Made by a program: the position numbers and the translations under genes. A DNA stretch of 64,000 nt from Bacteroidia bacterium (lineage in GTDB: Bacteria > Bacteroidota > Bacteroidia > NS11-12g > UBA9320), in NCBI GenBank assembly GCA_965216465.1, contig CBDCFW010000005.1, positions 384,001 to 448,000 of the forward strand. The letters are read 5' to 3'. The notes beneath the pieces were generated by a model. It saw nothing but the letters and a program-made list of their open reading frames with translations, did not search any database and was not told the DNA's origin. Position 1 is the stretch's first letter. The number at the start of each line of letters is the position of its first letter. Positions 35,132-42,187 of this stretch are shown here, in pieces.

Positions 35132-36457
35132 CTACTTCAACACCTCTCCCCCTCTTAATCGCTTAAATGCATCTACCACTTCGGCGTGGTGCGGGGTGTT
35201 TTTAATGAAGTATTTAACAATGATTTGCTTTTCTTCTTCCGTTGCTTCAAGCTGATTGAGAATATTGAGCAAATGCATTTTCATATGACCTTGCTGAATT
35301 CCAGTAGTTGTAAGGCTTCTCAATGCAGAAAAGTTTTGTGCTAAACCAACTGTCGCGGTAATCTTCATCAAGTCTTCAGCACTTGGGTTCCCCAACATCT
35401 GGTGGGCAAATTTCACCATCGGGTGCAGTTTAGTTATTCCTCCAACCGTACCTAAGGCCAAAGGCACTTCAATATAAAATCTAAACTCACCATCACTCAA
35501 ATCAACATGGGTCAAACTTCCATAATGACCATCTTTCGTTGCATAAGCATGTGCACTGGCTTCAATAGCTCTGAAATCATTTCCTGTTGCCAAAATCACA
35601 GAGTCAATTCCATTCATCACCCCTTTGTTATGCGTTACAGCTCGATAAGGCTGAGTCTCGGCTATCTGCACCGCAGTCCTAAACCGTTTTGCAAACGCAT
35701 CCGGTTCAATATCGGTACCTTCGACCATCGCTGCAATTGGAGAGACCACCTCACTTCTTACTAAGCATTTAGGTGTGTAATTGCTCAAAATACACATCAC
35801 CACTTCAATTGCATTAGGATTTAAACTAGATTCTTGAACTTCTCGCCTCAACACATCAGCAAACTTCTCTAAACAAGTATTTATAAAATTTGCACCCATA
35901 CTATCACAGGTTTCAAACTCCGCTTCAAGTTGATAGTAGTTCTGAATATCGTTTGTTTTATCAACCAATGAAATCGATTCAATTCCACCTCCACGCTTAC
36001 GCATATTAGCTGTAATGCCTTCCGTTTCAGTATGAAATTTAGTCTCAATTTGTTTGAACAATTCAAATAACCCTACTTTATCAGTTCCCTCCCACATGAA
36101 GTGAACATGACCTATCTTGGTGGTACCGACAATAGAAGCTTGAAATCCACCCTTGTGATACCAGAAATTTGCAGCCTTTGCCGCCGCAGCTACAACTGAT
36201 GATTCTTCAATAGCCATCGGAACACAATAGTCTTGGCCATTGATTAAAAAATTAGGTGCAATTCCAAATGGAACATAGAAATTCGTGATGGTGTTCTCAA
36301 TAAACTCATCATGAAGTTTTTGAAGCTTTAAATCTTCATTCCAGTACTTTCTTAATGCTTCGACAGCTTCTGATGAACCGTCAAAATAATTTTGAATGAG
36401 CCACTCAATCTTGGCTTCTTTTGAGAGTTTCGAATACCCTTTAATGAACTTACTCAA
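35132..36457 (-). CDS. mvaA: Hydroxymethylglutaryl-CoA reductase, class II
   Basis: IENTI, PMAIEESSVVAA, DSMGANFIN, RAVTHNKG.MNGI and GIQQGHMKMH motifs. Confidence 0.95.
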   Translation of the reverse strand: MSKFIKGYSKLSKEAKIEWLIQNYFDGSSEAVEALRKYWNEDLKLQKLHDEFIENTITNFYVPFGIAPNFLINGQDYCVPMAIEESSVVAAAAKAANFWYHKGGFQASIVGTTKIGHVHFMWEGTDKVGLFELFKQIETKFHTETEGITANMRKRGGGIESISLVDKTNDIQNYYQLEAEFETCDSMGANFINTCLEKFADVLRREVQESSLNPNAIEVVMCILSNYTPKCLVRSEVVSPIAAMVEGTDIEPDAFAKRFRTAVQIAETQPYRAVTHNKGVMNGIDSVILATGNDFRAIEASAHAYATKDGHYGSLTHVDLSDGEFRFYIEVPLALGTVGGITKLHPMVKFAHQMLGNPSAEDLMKITATVGLAQNFSALRSLTTTGIQQGHMKMHLLNILNQLEATEEEKQIIVKYFIKNTPHHAEVVDAFKRLRGGEVLK

Positions 36458-36459
36458 TT

Positions 36460-37449
36460 TTATCTCAGTTTTAAGTAGGTGTTTGCTAATTTCAGACCTC
36501 TGATTTGAAGATCTACATATTTTCTTAAGTCCTCGTAATTACCCCGTGAATGTTTTAAAAAGGACGAAGCTTGACCATATACCGCATTGGTTTTAATTTT
36601 CTTGATGTGGTAGTAGCCATCCATAAAATCACGAACTCCACCACTCACAATTACTTCACCAGCCTTCCCTCCGTGATCTAGTAATTCGTTATAAAACGAA
36701 ACCATCTCTTCGGCCGTATGGCCCCAATTTGCAATTTTATTGTAGGCTTCGTGCTCCATATCTTCACTGCGGTGCATCTCAAGTTTACTGAAGTTTGTTC
36801 CGCCATGAGCTCCAAAGTCAATGGCAGCTAAAGGTAAGTTCATTAACGCCCTTAGCGACTCAGGACCAAAACCTTGACCAACTTCCTTTACCACAATGGA
36901 TAAATCCATATCTAAAAGCCTTGAAATTGTATCAATTGGAGGCTGCTTAAGGCGATCTCCTTCCGGTTGTAACCATTCTTGAAGTGGATTTATATGGACA
37001 ATCAATCCATCAGTTTCGGTTTTCTTCAATAACTCAGATACATGATTCAATTGGTTTTGTGCTATGAGTTCTTCTACCTGTGCTATTCCCAAATTGGCAT
37101 ATAGGGGATAATCTCCAATTAAACTTCGCAATTGAAAATCAGAAAGGTATTCATCATTGTCTAAAATTATTCTGCAGCTGCCCAATCCCATACCCATGCC
37201 GAATTCTCCGCATGCTCGAGCAAGGTTTTTGTTTATGGTTCCTGCTTCTTTAGTGCCACCGGTCATGCTACTTACCCAAACAGGAACTTTTAGCTGTTTG
37301 CCTAAAAATGGTTTCGACAAGTCAATTTGATCTGGATGCTCAGCAAATAAGGGCTCATAAAAGAACCTTTCGTCTTGCGTATTCACTACCGATTTAAAAG
37401 CTAAATCAATATGATCTTTTTTTCTTTCTGATGTTTTAGTGTGTCCCAA
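36460..37449 (-). CDS. fni: Type 2 isopentenyl-diphosphate delta-isomerase
   Basis: RKKDHI, SSMTGG, HINPLQEWLQPEGD, VKEVGQG and GGTNF motifs. Start set at TTG 37449 (5 nt after TATCTTCG); the ORF track extends to 37473. Confidence 0.92.
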   Translation of the reverse strand: MGHTKTSERKKDHIDLAFKSVVNTQDERFFYEPLFAEHPDQIDLSKPFLGKQLKVPVWVSSMTGGTKEAGTINKNLARACGEFGMGMGLGSCRIILDNDEYLSDFQLRSLIGDYPLYANLGIAQVEELIAQNQLNHVSELLKKTETDGLIVHINPLQEWLQPEGDRLKQPPIDTISRLLDMDLSIVVKEVGQGFGPESLRALMNLPLAAIDFGAHGGTNFSKLEMHRSEDMEHEAYNKIANWGHTAEEMVSFYNELLDHGGKAGEVIVSGGVRDFMDGYYHIKKIKTNAVYGQASSFLKHSRGNYEDLRKYVDLQIRGLKLANTYLKLR

Positions 37450-37485
37450 AGCTGCGAAGATAATGTTAAGCAATAGAATGAATAA

Positions 37486-40338
37486 TTGGAATTAGATTAT
37501 TTAAATTGCAAAGCCATTAAAGCAATAAAACACATAGGGGGGTTAATTGTTTCCTTGCTCATCTTTGCATCGAGTTTTGCACAGCAACCACTTTACACGC
37601 AGTTAGGGAACAACCAAACACTCAACGGAGTCGAAATTTATGGAATGTCGCAAGACCGTTTGAAGAACATTTGGCTCACCACAAGTAATGGTCTATACAA
37701 ATACGACGGTGATGAATTTGAGAATATTAAGAATGAATCATTAATCACAAATGAGTTTTTTCAACCCTTCTTTACACCTTCAAACCGTTTTTACTTCACA
37801 GATATTTCAGGTGATATTTTTACCTTGAAAGACGATAAGATAACACCTTTTCTTCAACTATCAATTCGAGGTTTAGATTTGGATGGAGGCATGTTGGTGT
37901 CGGGCGAATACCTCTATGTAAAATCTAAAGACAGCCTTTTTCAAATAGACTCTAATGGAATCAAAGAGGCAATTTTTGGTTATAAATCGGCCTTTGCTGG
38001 AACACGAATAAAAATTCAAAAAGAGAGGTCAGAAATAACCATTTACACCAAAAATCACGCTGAAGAAATTTACATCAAAGGGAATGAAGTTAAAATTTCT
38101 AAAAACACGAAAAATCCCAATTATACAGCTGCACGACTCGAGCTACATGTAATAACTAATCACCACAACTTTCATGTAGAAAGCGATGCCATCAGATTCT
38201 CGAATCTTAATCATTTAGGGCCTTACATGGTCGATAAGTCCGGAAACCGATGGAAGGCTTTCAGGAATAAAAAAGGAGTGTTTTTAAAACGAAAGAATCA
38301 AGAACAAGAAAACCTCATTTTTGAGGAGTATAACATCAATTATATCTTCGAAGATGTTGACGACAACCTCTGGATTGGAACCCGAAATAATGGTATCTTT
38401 TTAGTCTCTGACCTTGAAGATTTCTCCTTTGCTCGAAGCTCAGAATTCCATGGAATATCGAGTGACGACCATCACGTATATGCCATTTCTCATAACCGAT
38501 TTCACGCCTTCGACAAAAGAACAATAAGCCAGTCGTCGGTCTATACACGAGCAACAAGCTCAAACCTTTATCTATTTAACAGCCCTGGTAAGGAGATGTA
38601 TAACTTTATCCAGACTAATAAGCATTATGTCATTTACAGAGGAACGGAAGAGATTGCACGACATCCTAGTCAAACATCGCTCATCAAAAATCATAAATGG
38701 GTCGATGATAGCACACTTATTGTTGCAACCGTAAGAGGGGCATACTTATTAAATCCGTTTACAAATACCCTATTAAGGCGATTAGGCGAATCGCAATGGC
38801 GTTGCTTGGATGTACAATGGGTATATGCCAAGCAGAAATACTTAATTGCAAGTGCACGAGGTCTAAAACTGCTTACAAAAAATGGAAAATTTGAACGCGA
38901 TATTTTACTTGCGGGAAGCCCTGTTTCAATTGAAAACCTTTTTGAAGTCAATGACAAAATATTTGGGATAGGACCTTCTGGAATTATTTATGATATTGAT
39001 GTTGACCACAGCACCATTTCTGAAATTGATCGCGTAGACATAAGTTTTTTGGTGATGTGTCGTCAGGTCGGAGATAATATTTTCATATTAGATAAGCACA
39101 ATGTTTATACCTACAACGTCTACACATCAACGCTAGGAAAGCTTCCAATTCTTTTACCTAACGATCTTACCCTTAGTGGAATAACAGTTAGCAATGATAA
39201 CATTTGGTTAAGTACAAGTAAGGGATTAGTAAAATTCGACCTCGAAAACTTTTCCAACCAAGTCCATGTTCCAGAGATTATGGTTGACATGTTTGAGGGG
39301 CACTTTTTATCTAAGGTTCAGAATAATTCTCGGTTCAAGTACAATAACAACAACCTATCGTTTAAGGTTAAAGTGCGCGATTATAAGTTTCAACGGTACA
39401 ATAGAATTCAATACCAATTGGTTGGTGCCGAACCGTTATTTACCGAAACAGCGTCAAGCGATTTAATTTCATATCGAGCTCTTTCTCCTGGTCATTACAC
39501 GTTTAGAGCAAAGGCCATTAACCCATTAGGAGCTGAAAGCGAAACCATTGAATACAAGTTTAGCATCAGTCATCCGTGGTGGTTAAAGTGGTGGTTTTAT
39601 GTCGCCCTTGCTGGGGTGATAGCAGCTATTTATGCCGCAGTGTACTATAGCAGTATAAAAAATAGAAGAGAACGTCGACGACTTAAAACGAGACTCCGAG
39701 AATCTCAAATTAACGCCATCATGGCACAAATGAATCCTCACTTCATATTCAATTGTTTAAACTCGATTCAGGATTTAATTTTACAAGAGGATATAAAAAG
39801 CAGCTACACCTATTTAGGGAAGTTTAGTGAGTTGACGCGAACAACCATGCAAGACAGTCAAAAGTCTGTAATTTCAATCAATCGAGAGTTAAACAACATA
39901 GGTTTATATCTTGAGTTAGAAGCACTTAGGTTTAAAGACTTAAATTATGAAATCATTAACACGCTTAGCGAAGAGCAATGTGAATTGTTTCATATACCTC
40001 CCATGCTCATTCAACCTTTTATAGAGAATGCGCTGAAGCATGGTCTCTTACACTCGAAGCAAAAAAAGAGGCTTGAGGTTGAAATTCAATACGACAAATC
40101 AGACTTAATAGTACAGATTAAAGACAATGGAGTTGGACGAGAGGAAGCAACTAAAATTAAAAAACGTCAAAGTAAGTATCGGTCATTCAGCGGAGGTGCC
40201 ATTGCAAAGCGCATTAGCTTGCTGAATTATCAAAAGGAGATGAAGATAAAACTTAAAACTGTTGATCACGTGAATGAAAATAAACTTGGATGGAGCACCA
40301 TTGTAGAGATACGATTTATTAATTTTACCTCCTATTAA
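37486..40338 (+). CDS. LytS-family sensor histidine kinase with periplasmic beta-propeller/Y_Y_Y domains (start uncertain)
   Basis: Propeller repeats (FEDVDDNLWIGT), Y_Y_Y domain (LSPGHYTFRAKA), a TM helix, AQMNPHFIFNCLNSIQ H-box, IPPMLIQPFIENALKHG and DNGVG. Confidence 0.92.
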   Translation: MELDYLNCKAIKAIKHIGGLIVSLLIFASSFAQQPLYTQLGNNQTLNGVEIYGMSQDRLKNIWLTTSNGLYKYDGDEFENIKNESLITNEFFQPFFTPSNRFYFTDISGDIFTLKDDKITPFLQLSIRGLDLDGGMLVSGEYLYVKSKDSLFQIDSNGIKEAIFGYKSAFAGTRIKIQKERSEITIYTKNHAEEIYIKGNEVKISKNTKNPNYTAARLELHVITNHHNFHVESDAIRFSNLNHLGPYMVDKSGNRWKAFRNKKGVFLKRKNQEQENLIFEEYNINYIFEDVDDNLWIGTRNNGIFLVSDLEDFSFARSSEFHGISSDDHHVYAISHNRFHAFDKRTISQSSVYTRATSSNLYLFNSPGKEMYNFIQTNKHYVIYRGTEEIARHPSQTSLIKNHKWVDDSTLIVATVRGAYLLNPFTNTLLRRLGESQWRCLDVQWVYAKQKYLIASARGLKLLTKNGKFERDILLAGSPVSIENLFEVNDKIFGIGPSGIIYDIDVDHSTISEIDRVDISFLVMCRQVGDNIFILDKHNVYTYNVYTSTLGKLPILLPNDLTLSGITVSNDNIWLSTSKGLVKFDLENFSNQVHVPEIMVDMFEGHFLSKVQNNSRFKYNNNNLSFKVKVRDYKFQRYNRIQYQLVGAEPLFTETASSDLISYRALSPGHYTFRAKAINPLGAESETIEYKFSISHPWWLKWWFYVALAGVIAAIYAAVYYSSIKNRRERRRLKTRLRESQINAIMAQMNPHFIFNCLNSIQDLILQEDIKSSYTYLGKFSELTRTTMQDSQKSVISINRELNNIGLYLELEALRFKDLNYEIINTLSEEQCELFHIPPMLIQPFIENALKHGLLHSKQKKRLEVEIQYDKSDLIVQIKDNGVGREEATKIKKRQSKYRSFSGGAIAKRISLLNYQKEMKIKLKTVDHVNENKLGWSTIVEIRFINFTSY

Positions 40339-40342
40339 GAAA

Positions 40343-41101
40343 GTGGAGAACATAAAAGCCATAATTGTTGACGATGAGGAAAGTTCAAGAAATATCTTAA
40401 GCAATATTCTCACAAAGTATGTTGAAGGAATTTATATTTTAGACAAATGTGCTGATGTTCCCAGTGCTGTAGATTCTGTTAAAAGAGAGAAGCCCGATGT
40501 TGTTTTTCTCGATATCGAAATGCCTAATTATAGTGGATTTGAGTTTCTCAACTTCTTCGACAAAATAGATTTTGAAATCATTTTTGTTTCGGCTTATGGC
40601 GAGTACGCTCTTAAGGCCTTTGATGTTTCGGCGGTCGATTATGTTTTAAAACCCATTCAAATCGAAAAAATACAAAACAGTATTGACAAGCTTCGAAACC
40701 GAATTCAATTGACCACAATGCAAGAACGATTTTCGGCACTTCAAGAAAATTTGAAGCAAGACAATGTTCATAAGCTAGCATTACCTATGTCGGATGGTCT
40801 TGTTTTTGTGAATACCAGCGAGATAATATTTCTTATAGCAGATGGCTCTTATACCAACATCTTTCTGCTCGATGGCACTAAATATTTAGTGAGCAAGAAA
40901 CTCAAGTTTTTTGAGCAGGCACTCTCCGACAACCGAAATTTCAAACGAGTACATCGTTCTTCGATGGTTAACCTTTCGCATGTTGTTAAATATCACAAAC
41001 ATGAAGGTGTATTAAGCTTTGGCAACAATGGCAACATTAAGGTTGCGAGAGACCGTAAATCAGGTATCGAGAACATACTGCACCAGTTTAGCGGACAATA
41101 A
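40343..41101 (+). CDS. LytTR-family response regulator
   Basis: IVDDE, FLDIEMP and DYVLKP receiver motifs; ADGSYT and FKRVHRSSMVNL LytTR domain. Confidence 0.95.
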   Translation: MENIKAIIVDDEESSRNILSNILTKYVEGIYILDKCADVPSAVDSVKREKPDVVFLDIEMPNYSGFEFLNFFDKIDFEIIFVSAYGEYALKAFDVSAVDYVLKPIQIEKIQNSIDKLRNRIQLTTMQERFSALQENLKQDNVHKLALPMSDGLVFVNTSEIIFLIADGSYTNIFLLDGTKYLVSKKLKFFEQALSDNRNFKRVHRSSMVNLSHVVKYHKHEGVLSFGNNGNIKVARDRKSGIENILHQFSGQ

Positions 41102-41116
41102 ATCAGAATAAGTTTT

Positions 41117-41186
41117 ACGGTTTATGGACTGAAAACTACCGTTTATGAAACGAGCGGATAACCTCAACAAAGTCTTTCTATCTTTA
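41117..41186 (+). promoter_or_regulatory. LytTR-type direct repeat plus -7 promoter element
   Basis: ACGGTTTAT (41117-25) and ACCGTTTAT (41138-46) separated by 12 bp fit the LytTR consensus [TA][AC][CA]GTTN[AG][TG]. TATCTTTA -7 variant at 41179-86. Confidence 0.7.
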
Positions 41187-41190
41187 CACT

Positions 41191-41337
41191 ATTGATGCGT
41201 ACACGTGAATTATATAACCCCTAATTCACGGCATGTTGACTAACCCCCAACATAAACCCCCACATGTATTGTACGGACCAATGAATTAAAATAATTACCT
41301 CAAATGAAGTTAAATCCCGCTCTGGCGGGATTTTTCA
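41191..41337 (+). ncRNA. Putative structured small RNA with repeated AACCCC loops
   Basis: Lies between a promoter and a terminator with no meaningful ORF. Multibranch fold with two 9-nt loops ending in TAACCCC and a third AAACCCCC tract. Confidence 0.6.
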
Positions 41338-41340
41338 TTT
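41302..41340. terminator. Intrinsic (likely bidirectional) terminator
   Basis: AAATCCCGC-TCTG-GCGGGATTT followed by T-rich sequence; extendable by AAATGAA/TTCATTT pairing. Confidence 0.8.
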
Positions 41341-41350
41341 TCAAGTGCTT

Positions 41351-42187
41351 CTAAATAGATATTGACACGCGATATCCGCTGTGACTTCTTATGTTTATGA
41401 CTCTTCCACCGTCAAAGATTAAGTATTGACCCTTAATTCCTTCCAATCTTCCTTCAATAATTTTTTCTTTATCCAGCTTCATGCTCTTAACCTTATCAGG
41501 AAATTCAATAACAGGATATTTTATAGATACAATCTCATTTGAGTCTGATGCATAGTGACTCAATTCATCAGGAATATGACTCAACATTTTGGCTTTAATA
41601 TTGGTAATGTCATCATCCGTTTCGACTAGACCTTTTAACATACGTTGCCAGGCCGTTTTATCCGAAATATGAGCCTTAAGAGCAACTTCTATTTCTCCGG
41701 CTAGCTGGCGATAAGGTACTTCTGAGAGCACAATTGCCTGTGTAGCTCCTTGGTCAATCCAGCGATGAGGAATATTAGAATCACGGGTAACTCCAACTTT
41801 AAAATTGCTGGTTAAGGATATATACACCACATGCGGTTGAAGATGATGACGAACTTCCCACTCATAATCTCTCAATGCAATGCCTTCATGAATTCTACTG
41901 AGCTCCGGCCTCATAATGCTCGGGCTAGCTTGTGGACTTTCCATAAACTCCTTATACGTCATTCCCTCACCAAAGGCCTTCTTAATTTTTTCACCAGACA
42001 AGATTGAGTTGATATATCCTTCATATTCCAATTTTAATTCTTGGCCTACTAAGGCATTCATCTCAATTTTTTCGTATGGATCAAGCACGTCTCTCAAGTG
42101 CAAAGTATACTGTGCTTCACCGTCGACGAGATCGGTATCCATCTTCCTTAGATTTCCTTCTAATTGCATTGCAGGTACAATATTCAA
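41351..42187 (-). CDS. DUF2797-domain protein
   Basis: LQPHVVY, KVGVTR..IPHRWIDQGA and GRLEGIKGQYLIF...NIRSHSGY motifs. Confidence 0.85.
   Translation of the reverse strand: MNIVPAMQLEGNLRKMDTDLVDGEAQYTLHLRDVLDPYEKIEMNALVGQELKLEYEGYINSILSGEKIKKAFGEGMTYKEFMESPQASPSIMRPELSRIHEGIALRDYEWEVRHHLQPHVVYISLTSNFKVGVTRDSNIPHRWIDQGATQAIVLSEVPYRQLAGEIEVALKAHISDKTAWQRMLKGLVETDDDITNIKAKMLSHIPDELSHYASDSNEIVSIKYPVIEFPDKVKSMKLDKEKIIEGRLEGIKGQYLIFDGGRVINIRSHSGYRVSISI

Follow-up and report, generated by a model that had tools for sequence, protein, structure and literature searches.

Genetic organization of the locus

The stretch of DNA analysed here, hereafter called the window, spans 64,000 nucleotides of the genome of a Bacteroidia bacterium (G000:C5:384001-448000; 3.23 Mb and 38% G+C for the whole genome). 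It harbours the genes of a two-component system with a LytTR-type regulator, immediately followed by a short intergenic unit that may give rise to a regulatory RNA. The first gene codes for a sensor histidine kinase of 950 residues with Reg_prop, Y_Y_Y, His_kinase (PF06580) and HATPase_c Pfam domains (37486..40338, + strand), and the second for a response regulator of 252 residues (40343..41101, + strand, stop codon at 41099-41101). The latter matches the Pfam signatures Response_reg and LytTR (PF04397, the DNA-binding domain), with a score of 54.8 bits for LytTR against a cut-off of 22.6, and its best NCBIfam matches are of the BtsR/LytR type, under the equivalog cut-offs. On its other side the unit is bordered by a convergent gene with a DUF2797 Pfam signature (41351..42187, - strand), which provided context and served as an anchor for synteny.

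Two direct repeats begin 16 nt after the regulator stop codon, namely box 1 (ACGGTTTAT, 41117..41125, + strand) and box 2 (ACCGTTTAT, 41138..41146, + strand). Both fit the motif ACNGTTYAT, with a 12-bp spacer and thus a period of 21 bp. They had been described as LytTR consensus repeats in an earlier reading of the sequence alone (hereafter called the sequence-only reading). With the consensus [TA][AC][CA]GTTN[AG][TG], taken as quoted there rather than from a paper, the spacer and the nine positions of box 2 agree, but box 1 fits at eight positions out of nine, its third position being G. A genome-wide scan for ACNGTTYAT-N12-ACNGTTYAT returned this pair as the single exact occurrence. When one or two mismatches were allowed, twelve additional sites appeared, all located within open reading frames (ORFs), and therefore 41117-41146 is the only recognizable site for the regulator. 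A -7-type promoter box (TATCTTTA, 41179..41186, + strand) follows 32 nt after the end of box 2 (offset 33 as counted in our scan); it matches five of the six specified positions of TAnnTTTG, the Bacteroidota promoter consensus. Neither inspection of the sequence nor terminator prediction revealed a terminator between the regulator stop codon and the unit.

The structured body of the putative RNA, with a predicted 5' end, extends over 41191..41282 (+ strand). In the minimum free energy (MFE) fold, the P1 helix (41191-94 and 41198-203 pairing with 41270-75 and 41279-82) encloses two hairpins, P2 (41204-12 pairing with 41224-32, loop TATAACCCC) and P3 (ATGTTG 41233-38 pairing with CAACAT 41248-53, loop ACTAACCCC). 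Three C-rich tracts on the same strand are predicted to be exposed: AACCCC in the P2 loop (41216..41221, unpaired probability 1.00), AACCCCC in the P3 loop and the first position of its 3' arm (41242..41248, 0.93), and AAACCCCC at the P3-P1 junction (41254..41261, 0.92), as compared with a mean unpaired probability of 0.43 over the whole RNA. An A/U-rich linker containing UUACCUCAAAU (41283..41311, + strand), single-stranded in the MFE fold, leads to an intrinsic terminator (41312..41343, + strand) identified both by terminator prediction and in the MFE fold. It is made of a 9-bp stem with five G-C pairs and a loop of 4 (41312-41333) followed by TTCATTTTC, which forms a U-rich tail. The terminator is flagged on both strands and is shared with the convergent DUF2797 gene, which ends there.

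The MFE of 41185-41345 (+ strand) is -39.5 kcal/mol, with a z score of -4.79 and none of 200 shuffled sequences folding as well. This fold reproduces P1, P2, P3 and the terminator, which is exactly the multibranch structure drawn in the sequence-only reading; the boxes, the 12-bp spacer, the -7 box, the three helices, the C tracts and the terminator all lie where that reading had placed them. The RNA body alone (41189-41290, + strand) has a z score of -3.64, again with 0/200 shuffles as good. The opposite strand is less exceptional, with z scores of -2.49 for the terminator-containing segment and -2.02 for the body, which 6 of 200 shuffles equalled. The stretch of ~145 nt is ORF-poor, as had been claimed, its longest ORF (41233-41289) coding for an 18-residue peptide, MLTNPQHKPPHVLYGPMN, that is not conserved. 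Scanning Rfam 15 at the gathering thresholds detected no family in this region, including GibS, FopS, RsaE, RsmY and STnc180. At E <= 10, the best match was STnc180 (17.5 bits against a threshold of 50), mostly contributed by the terminator, and a match to RsmY was restricted to the terminator (12.5 bits, gathering score 57).

Orthologous loci in related genomes

Among 60 relatives, the closest matches of the response regulator were found in G008, G024, G014 and G049 (57, 56, 50 and 46% identity, respectively), its closest paralogue in the host genome being 38% identical. The gene order of G008 is fully syntenic with the window, with genes for HMG-CoA reductase, a 337-residue protein, the kinase and the regulator, then the unit and the DUF2797 gene. 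On the shorter G024 contig the same order begins within the kinase gene, of which the part for the C-terminus is present, and continues with the regulator, the unit and the DUF2797 gene. The flanking genes where present are ~66-72% identical to those of the window (66-67% for DUF2797), and the G008 kinase is 39% identical. Both loci keep the boxes just past the regulator stop codon, with box 1 as ACGGTTCAT in G008 and ACAGTTCAT in G024, followed by a -7-like box, a short ORF-poor stretch and a terminator.

In these two genomes the unit is ~95 nt long and is predicted to consist of a single-stranded 5' part, one hairpin and the terminator. It carries unpaired C-rich motifs, AACCCU and GACCCC (unpaired probability 0.76-0.99) as well as AAACCUCC. 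The P1-P3 stems and equal-sized AACCCC loops described in the sequence-only reading are not conserved in the only two orthologous loci found, which by that reading's own standard counts partly against it, and between the two kinds of units what appears to recur is only a class of features, exposed C-rich motifs. The G008 and G024 loci are 77% identical to each other over 2.2 kb, as compared with 91% for the unit, with 51 of 53 core positions unchanged. The core is the top-scoring 40-nt window of the whole alignment at 95%, with two coding windows reaching 93%, and its stems do not vary between the two genomes. G008 harbours a 13-codon ORF in which the sole change in G024 replaces V by D; its stop codon is not kept, and the G024 frame reads through the terminator. 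Since all codon positions of the core are conserved, the constraint appears to operate at the RNA rather than the protein level. No conserved ORF was identified, the peptides of the window unit and of the G008/G024 unit being unrelated.

BLASTN searches with the window unit in the 60 relatives yielded matches of terminator size only. A covariance model built from the G008 and G024 units gave strong matches to its two training loci only among 66 family genomes. Seven of 11 weaker matches (32-37 bits) were inspected; by eye they correspond to coding-looking 3' ends with terminators, without similarity to the six query proteins, and they were taken as false positives.

In the window, the HMG-CoA reductase gene (35132-36457, - strand) lies 5' of the kinase gene, and the gene for the 337-residue protein, which lacks Pfam matches (36460-37473, - strand), adjoins the latter. 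Only 12 nt separate the start of this gene from the annotated TTG start codon of the kinase gene, and because of this short gap the kinase promoter must be located inside or beyond the 337-codon gene. A complete rRNA operon (16S, two tRNAs, 23S, 5S) is found at 6164-11185 (- strand) of the window.

The same boxes in other Bacteroidota

Occurrences of the box pair were collected in one genome per species, which gave 34 loci in total. In Bacteroidota, apart from the G008 and G024 loci, three of them are arrays of tandem repeats and five have a single site (L053, L058, L061, L066 and L073). A regulator of the same clade, 44-49% identical to that of the window and hence nearer to it than its 38% identical paralogue, is encoded in four of these five loci; the fifth, L061, ends 100 nt from the box site. 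In all five, the boxes precede a gene whose product has a signal-peptide-like N-terminus, at distances of 65 to 149 nt. The three complete ORFs behind boxes all code for Por_Secre_tail proteins, i.e., with the sorting domain of the type IX secretion system (T9SS), combined with Laminin_G_3, SBBP or BNR domains. In the window, G008, G024, L058, L066 and L073, the best -7-like box is found at an offset of 32-34, with four or five matches out of six. The G049 regulator orthologue has different boxes, yet it also drives a gene for a Por_Secre_tail protein.

We conclude from these comparisons that the usual target of this regulator clade is very probably an adjacent T9SS cargo gene, and that in the genus of the window a short unit has taken the place of the protein target. 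It is very probable that the boxes are genuine, because the genome has no second exact pair and the same pair is kept both in syntenic loci and beside regulators of the same clade, and we assign them with high confidence as the predicted operator of this clade. The features at the locus, the uniqueness of the box pair, the conservation of boxes and promoter and the presence of a short unit in place of a protein target are direct observations. Independently of any RNA, a conserved cis-element is thus defined, ACNGTTYAT-N12-ACNGTTYAT followed after ~32 nt by a -7 box, and across Bacteroidota this element ties T9SS cargo genes to the LytTR systems with propeller sensors, all of one clade, that adjoin them.

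With locus L014 added to the five single sites, a same-clade LytTR regulator is found in five of six loci and Por_Secre_tail in four complete ORFs. In this set the position of the boxes varies, as they are located after the regulator stop codon, after the kinase gene or divergently upstream. Long tandem arrays with a 21-nt unit were found in three Bacteroidota contigs from metagenome-assembled genomes (L045, L052 and L059), in a Spirochaetales contig (L072) and in a metagenome (L042). The unit holds a LytTR-box-like core, ACNGTTYATGAA, for instance in repeated ACGGTTTATGAATAAAGGGGT; it is conceivable that these represent decoy or operator arrays.

AACCCC clusters and a second LytTR locus

Three AACCCC motifs within 80 nt on one strand are present at five loci of the host genome, as compared with ~0.03 expected (an estimate from motif frequency). 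Such clustering, like the single exact box pair, goes beyond what would be expected at random. Three of the five are tandem repeats within ORFs. The two intergenic ones are the unit described here and a cluster at C5:714748-714791, which is also found directly behind the genes of a kinase/LytTR pair, of a different type with TPR and HisKA_2 domains (G000:C5:711956-715069, i.e., L077 1451-4569, outside the window). With eight LytTR-domain genes among ~2700 genes, the location of both intergenic clusters behind such genes would occur by chance with a probability of ~1e-5, a rough and post hoc figure. Behind the second pair come box-like repeats, then a -7-like box and a hairpin, and finally some six units resembling UAACCCC that immediately precede an 87-codon ORF. 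The units read TTAACCCCC TAACCCCC TAACCCCC TAACCTCC ... TAACCCC ... GACCCCC, and as each of them contains TAA, no frame is open through the repeats. The product of the ORF consists of a T9SS sorting domain alone (TIGR04183, 26.1 bits). Orthologues of the second regulator in G031 and G056 are followed by ordinary secreted-protein genes, without a C-rich leader. This parallel may reflect a lineage-specific RNA signal on LytTR outputs, or else a lineage-specific repeat that marks decayed targets.

More broadly, the AACCCC-cluster pattern has seven matches in the host genome as compared with none in the reversed control, and 52 of 65 family genomes have none, so that such clusters are mostly particular to the host genome. 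We considered the cluster as a family-wide element and rejected this idea, the matches across the family being mostly coding linkers. Other clusters of the host genome are found at C6:441573-441614, C6:617245-617277, C6:426575-426604 and upstream of C3:350777. They include in-frame tandem repeats of the same motif family, with GGGGTTAAT present four to five times in two genes (Gly-Val-Asn repeats) and CATCATTAACCC three times in a third gene, as well as AGGGTTAAG repeated three times upstream of a kdsB-like gene. The genome encodes 135 proteins matching Por_Secre_tail, which represents ~5% of its genes.

Candidate target

We looked for potential partners of the C tracts among 2682 leaders, a heuristic set derived from crude ORF calls (first ATG, at least 90 residues, greedy). 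A 26-nt query covering C tracts was used, since a scan with a 62-nt query proved no better than its shuffles (see below). The best leader, that of the gene for a 321-residue protein with a signal-peptide-like start (G000:C5:726683-727648), reached -35.9 kcal/mol as compared with -20.4 for the runner-up, a lead of 15.5. None of 20 shuffles preserving the C runs reached this value (best -33.1), and the reversed-leader control gave -29.7. Two blocks, of 7 and 12 bp, of complementarity to 41238-41263 are provided by the sequence GGGGGU-N-UGUUGGGGGUUA of the leader; in the predicted duplex, C tract 2 lies within the 12-nt perfect complement and C tract 3 forms the 7-bp block. This leader was also tied as the best non-self blastn match genome-wide (30.8 bits, as compared with 28.9 for the reversed-query control), and a perfect TAnnTTTG box is present upstream of it. 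The 5' untranslated region (UTR) of this secreted, T9SS-tail-like gene is our best candidate target.

Proposed mode of action and alternative explanations

Taking these elements together, we put the probability that the unit specifies a functional, regulator-dependent non-coding RNA at about one half. That LytTR boxes would drive an adjacent short RNA is well supported by the comparison of loci, and the unit is likely to be the output of the two-component system, apparently its sole direct one, because its boxes are the only such site of the genome. As the kinase, the regulator and the boxes are intact and no other site is present, a retained system would need an output. In the proposed mechanism, the phosphorylated regulator would bind the two ACNGTTYAT boxes at 41117-41146 and activate a weak Bacteroidota-type promoter, with the -7 box at 41179-86 and no -33 element. 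An RNA of ~145-150 nt would be made, from ~41192 to the terminator at 41333-41343, and transcripts of the kinase-regulator operon that read through would include this sequence as their 3' UTR. The RNA would display the three unpaired (A)AACCCC(C) tracts on the P1/P2/P3 scaffold, and these tracts would most likely pair in trans with G-rich mRNA leaders, in the manner of the AgrA-dependent RsaE in staphylococci. If the RNA is functional, we consider pairing by means of its C tracts as its most probable way of acting. We infer transcription, regulator binding, action in trans and the target from the features of the locus.

Several observations weigh against this reading. The -7 box is imperfect, and the unit includes an ATG-initiated ORF of 18 codons. 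The arrangement was found in three genomes only. Regulators matching at E <= 1e-62 are encoded in only three of 65 other family genomes, and in one of these, G014, a protein gene lies downstream of the regulator gene and the boxes are not visible by eye. The RNA body of the window is not alignable with the G008/G024 unit, and thus P1-P3 have no comparative support. When applied to 3 kb of the window, the G008/G024 covariance model matched the linker and terminator only (12.2 bits, E = 0.12), and no covariation evidence was obtained for the stems with three sequences, two of them alignable. The claim of a small RNA (sRNA) as output of the two-component system thus stands as regards unique, conserved boxes in front of a structured, terminator-ended and ORF-poor unit, but not as regards conserved stems and loops. 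The target raises further difficulties. The T9SS tail of the 321-residue protein is sub-threshold (18.9 bits for a cut-off of 23), and the blastn match is not significant alone (E = 0.17). The 62-nt duplex scan was discarded as a statistic, since it gave -43.0 at the top but two of eight mononucleotide shuffles reached -40 or lower. GGGGT is present in 5 of 42 T9SS-cargo leaders as compared with a baseline of 5%, an unconvincing enrichment. The pairing is not conserved in relatives, where the orthologous leader ranks 1820/2682 for G008 and 149/2682 for G024. Because of this lack of conservation and of the shuffles that match the longer query, the target is a lead rather than a finding, and the proposal of seed pairing to G-rich mRNAs is left with a single candidate leader.

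The unit might instead be the non-functional remnant of a lost T9SS-cargo target, of which boxes, promoter, leader and terminator subsist, or simply the end of the kinase-regulator operon, with a structured 3' UTR and its terminator. In all other loci these boxes drive genes for secreted proteins, the RNA body is wholly different between the window and G008/G024, and the second LytTR locus ends with a sorting-domain-only ORF of 87 codons that looks like a decayed target; in addition, no terminator lies between the regulator stop codon and the unit. It is difficult to reconcile with decay, however, that the kinase and regulator are intact and that the boxes show perfect conservation although the regulators share only 56% identity, at the sole such site of the genome; because all three are intact, a system maintained without any output appears unlikely. 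In addition, the G008/G024 core (95%, the unit 91%) exceeds the 77% of the flanking genes, the fold has z scores of -3.6 to -4.8, and a blastx search of 41102-41350 against the six target proteins and the 321-residue protein revealed no residual coding similarity (best E 0.53). We therefore regard a remnant or mere 3' UTR as unlikely. The C tracts could also stem from a short DNA repeat specific to the lineage (TTAACCCC-like, a microsatellite-type expansion), with no function at the RNA level. The seven cluster matches against none in the control, their absence from 52 of 65 family genomes and the tandem 8-, 9- or 12-nt repeats of the other clusters, three of them within ORFs, are compatible with such an origin. 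However, the three tracts of the unit are not in tandem and occupy distinct structural contexts (loop, loop and junction), and both intergenic clusters directly follow LytTR genes, with the post hoc probability given above, which makes a mere DNA repeat highly improbable.

A functional RNA might act as a protein sponge or decoy rather than by pairing, its C-rich tracts titrating an RNA-binding protein shared with other UAACCCC leaders, for which RRM-type proteins are the obvious candidates. The motifs are multiple, similar and unpaired, a second LytTR-driven leader has about six UAACCCC-like units, two small RRM_1 proteins are encoded in the host genome, and RbpB binds sRNAs in Bacteroides (PMC11697453). 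Conversely, neither CsrA nor Hfq was found in the genome, the motif is not exactly kept in G008/G024, and TAACCCC is not over-represented genome-wide, with 248 occurrences observed for ~250 expected from our own base-composition estimate. Moreover, we know of no protein that reads a UAACCCC-type motif. Altogether a sponge appears improbable, and its strict CsrB-like form, as envisaged in the sequence-only reading, is excluded by the absence of CsrA from the genome, the loops being C-rich and not of the GGA type. Finally, the transcript might be the mRNA of a very small protein of 18 residues (41233-41289), which could act in signalling or at the membrane. Genes for peptides are frequent targets of LytTR systems in Firmicutes, the unit contains the corresponding ATG-initiated ORF, and an ORF of 13 codons is similarly placed in G008. 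Nevertheless, the peptides of the window and of G008/G024 are unrelated, the sole substitution from G008 to G024 changes V to D with loss of the stop codon, conservation spans all codon positions, and the P3 stem sequesters the start codon. We consider this the least probable of the alternatives.

A broader version of the non-coding RNA reading would link both LytTR loci. Two unrelated LytTR systems would each emit a UAACCCC-studded RNA, a free sRNA in one case and the leader of a sorting-domain-only ORF in the other. Complementary G-rich sites, namely GGGGGUUA in the secreted-protein leader and the tandem repeats of GGGGUUAAU found in two ORFs, would complete a network of C-rich and G-rich RNAs controlling part of the T9SS secretome. 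We regard such a network as rather improbable at this stage. If true, it would add to the control of T9SS cargo a level that has not been described in Bacteroidota, arisen by swapping the protein targets of LytTR regulators for RNAs.

Comparison with known systems

The action of LytTR regulators through small RNAs is a paradigm of Firmicutes, exemplified by agr/RNAIII, fas/FasX and RsaE. Literature searches on LytTR and small RNA in Bacteroidetes, and on LytTR and type IX secretion, revealed no comparable case, the matches being genome or transcriptome descriptions judging by their titles and the start of their abstracts. If the RNA is real, this would be a Bacteroidota two-component system with an sRNA as its only direct output, in which an RNA has supplanted a secreted protein as target in the course of evolution. 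It would also constitute a compact, testable module made of a sensor, a regulator, boxes, an RNA and one candidate leader.

Like the CsrB/RsmY sponges, the predicted RNA shows several similar short motifs in loops. It differs from them by its C-rich motif in place of GGA, and CsrA (PF02599) has no match in this genome, which is 100% complete. In PMC11697453, GibS and FopS are described as intergenic Bacteroides sRNAs in which a single-stranded seed precedes a terminator hairpin and which pair near the start codons of outer-membrane and secretome genes. The G008/G024 unit shares this layout, but the RNA described here has no Rfam match, although FopS is deposited in Rfam according to the same source. 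FopS has canonical promoters and no known regulator, as opposed to the dedicated two-component system that adjoins the three-helix RNA of the window.

For AgrA of S. aureus, with its P2/P3 promoters and RNAIII, PMC3673130 describes LytTR regulators that bind paired direct repeats and act via a regulatory RNA, and it also names VR-RNA, the RNA of the VirR system of C. perfringens. RNAIII is ~0.5 kb long and divergent from agr, in contrast with the downstream unit of ~145 nt described here. Moreover, RNAIII encodes hld, whereas the largest ORF of the unit has 18 codons and is not conserved. RsaE has a layout resembling that of the predicted RNA: its expression is agrA-dependent, and G-rich sites of its targets are bound by C-rich motifs that are unpaired and present in duplicate (PMC2790875 and PMC6158497). 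Similarly, three unpaired C tracts follow LytTR boxes in the window. The RsaE motif is UCCC, directed at Shine-Dalgarno-like sequences, as opposed to (A)AACCCC(C) here, with a target that is only predicted and not conserved. Bacteroidota make little use of Shine-Dalgarno pairing. As the Rfam scans gave no RsaE match, the unit is not an RsaE homologue.

The gene arrangement resembles that of fasBCAX in Streptococcus pyogenes. FasA, a homologue of AgrA, promotes the transcription of the FasX sRNA, which acts on mRNA 5' UTRs (PMC3673130). This system belongs to Firmicutes and has AgrC-related membrane kinases, in contrast with the periplasmic Reg_prop/Y_Y_Y sensor of the window. FasX has no sequence or structure similarity to the RNA described here, which has no Rfam match, and it has been demonstrated experimentally, whereas the latter is predicted. 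In both cases, the genes for a kinase and a regulator would likewise have a small RNA as output, and with fasX just downstream of fasA, the gene order matches that of the present locus.

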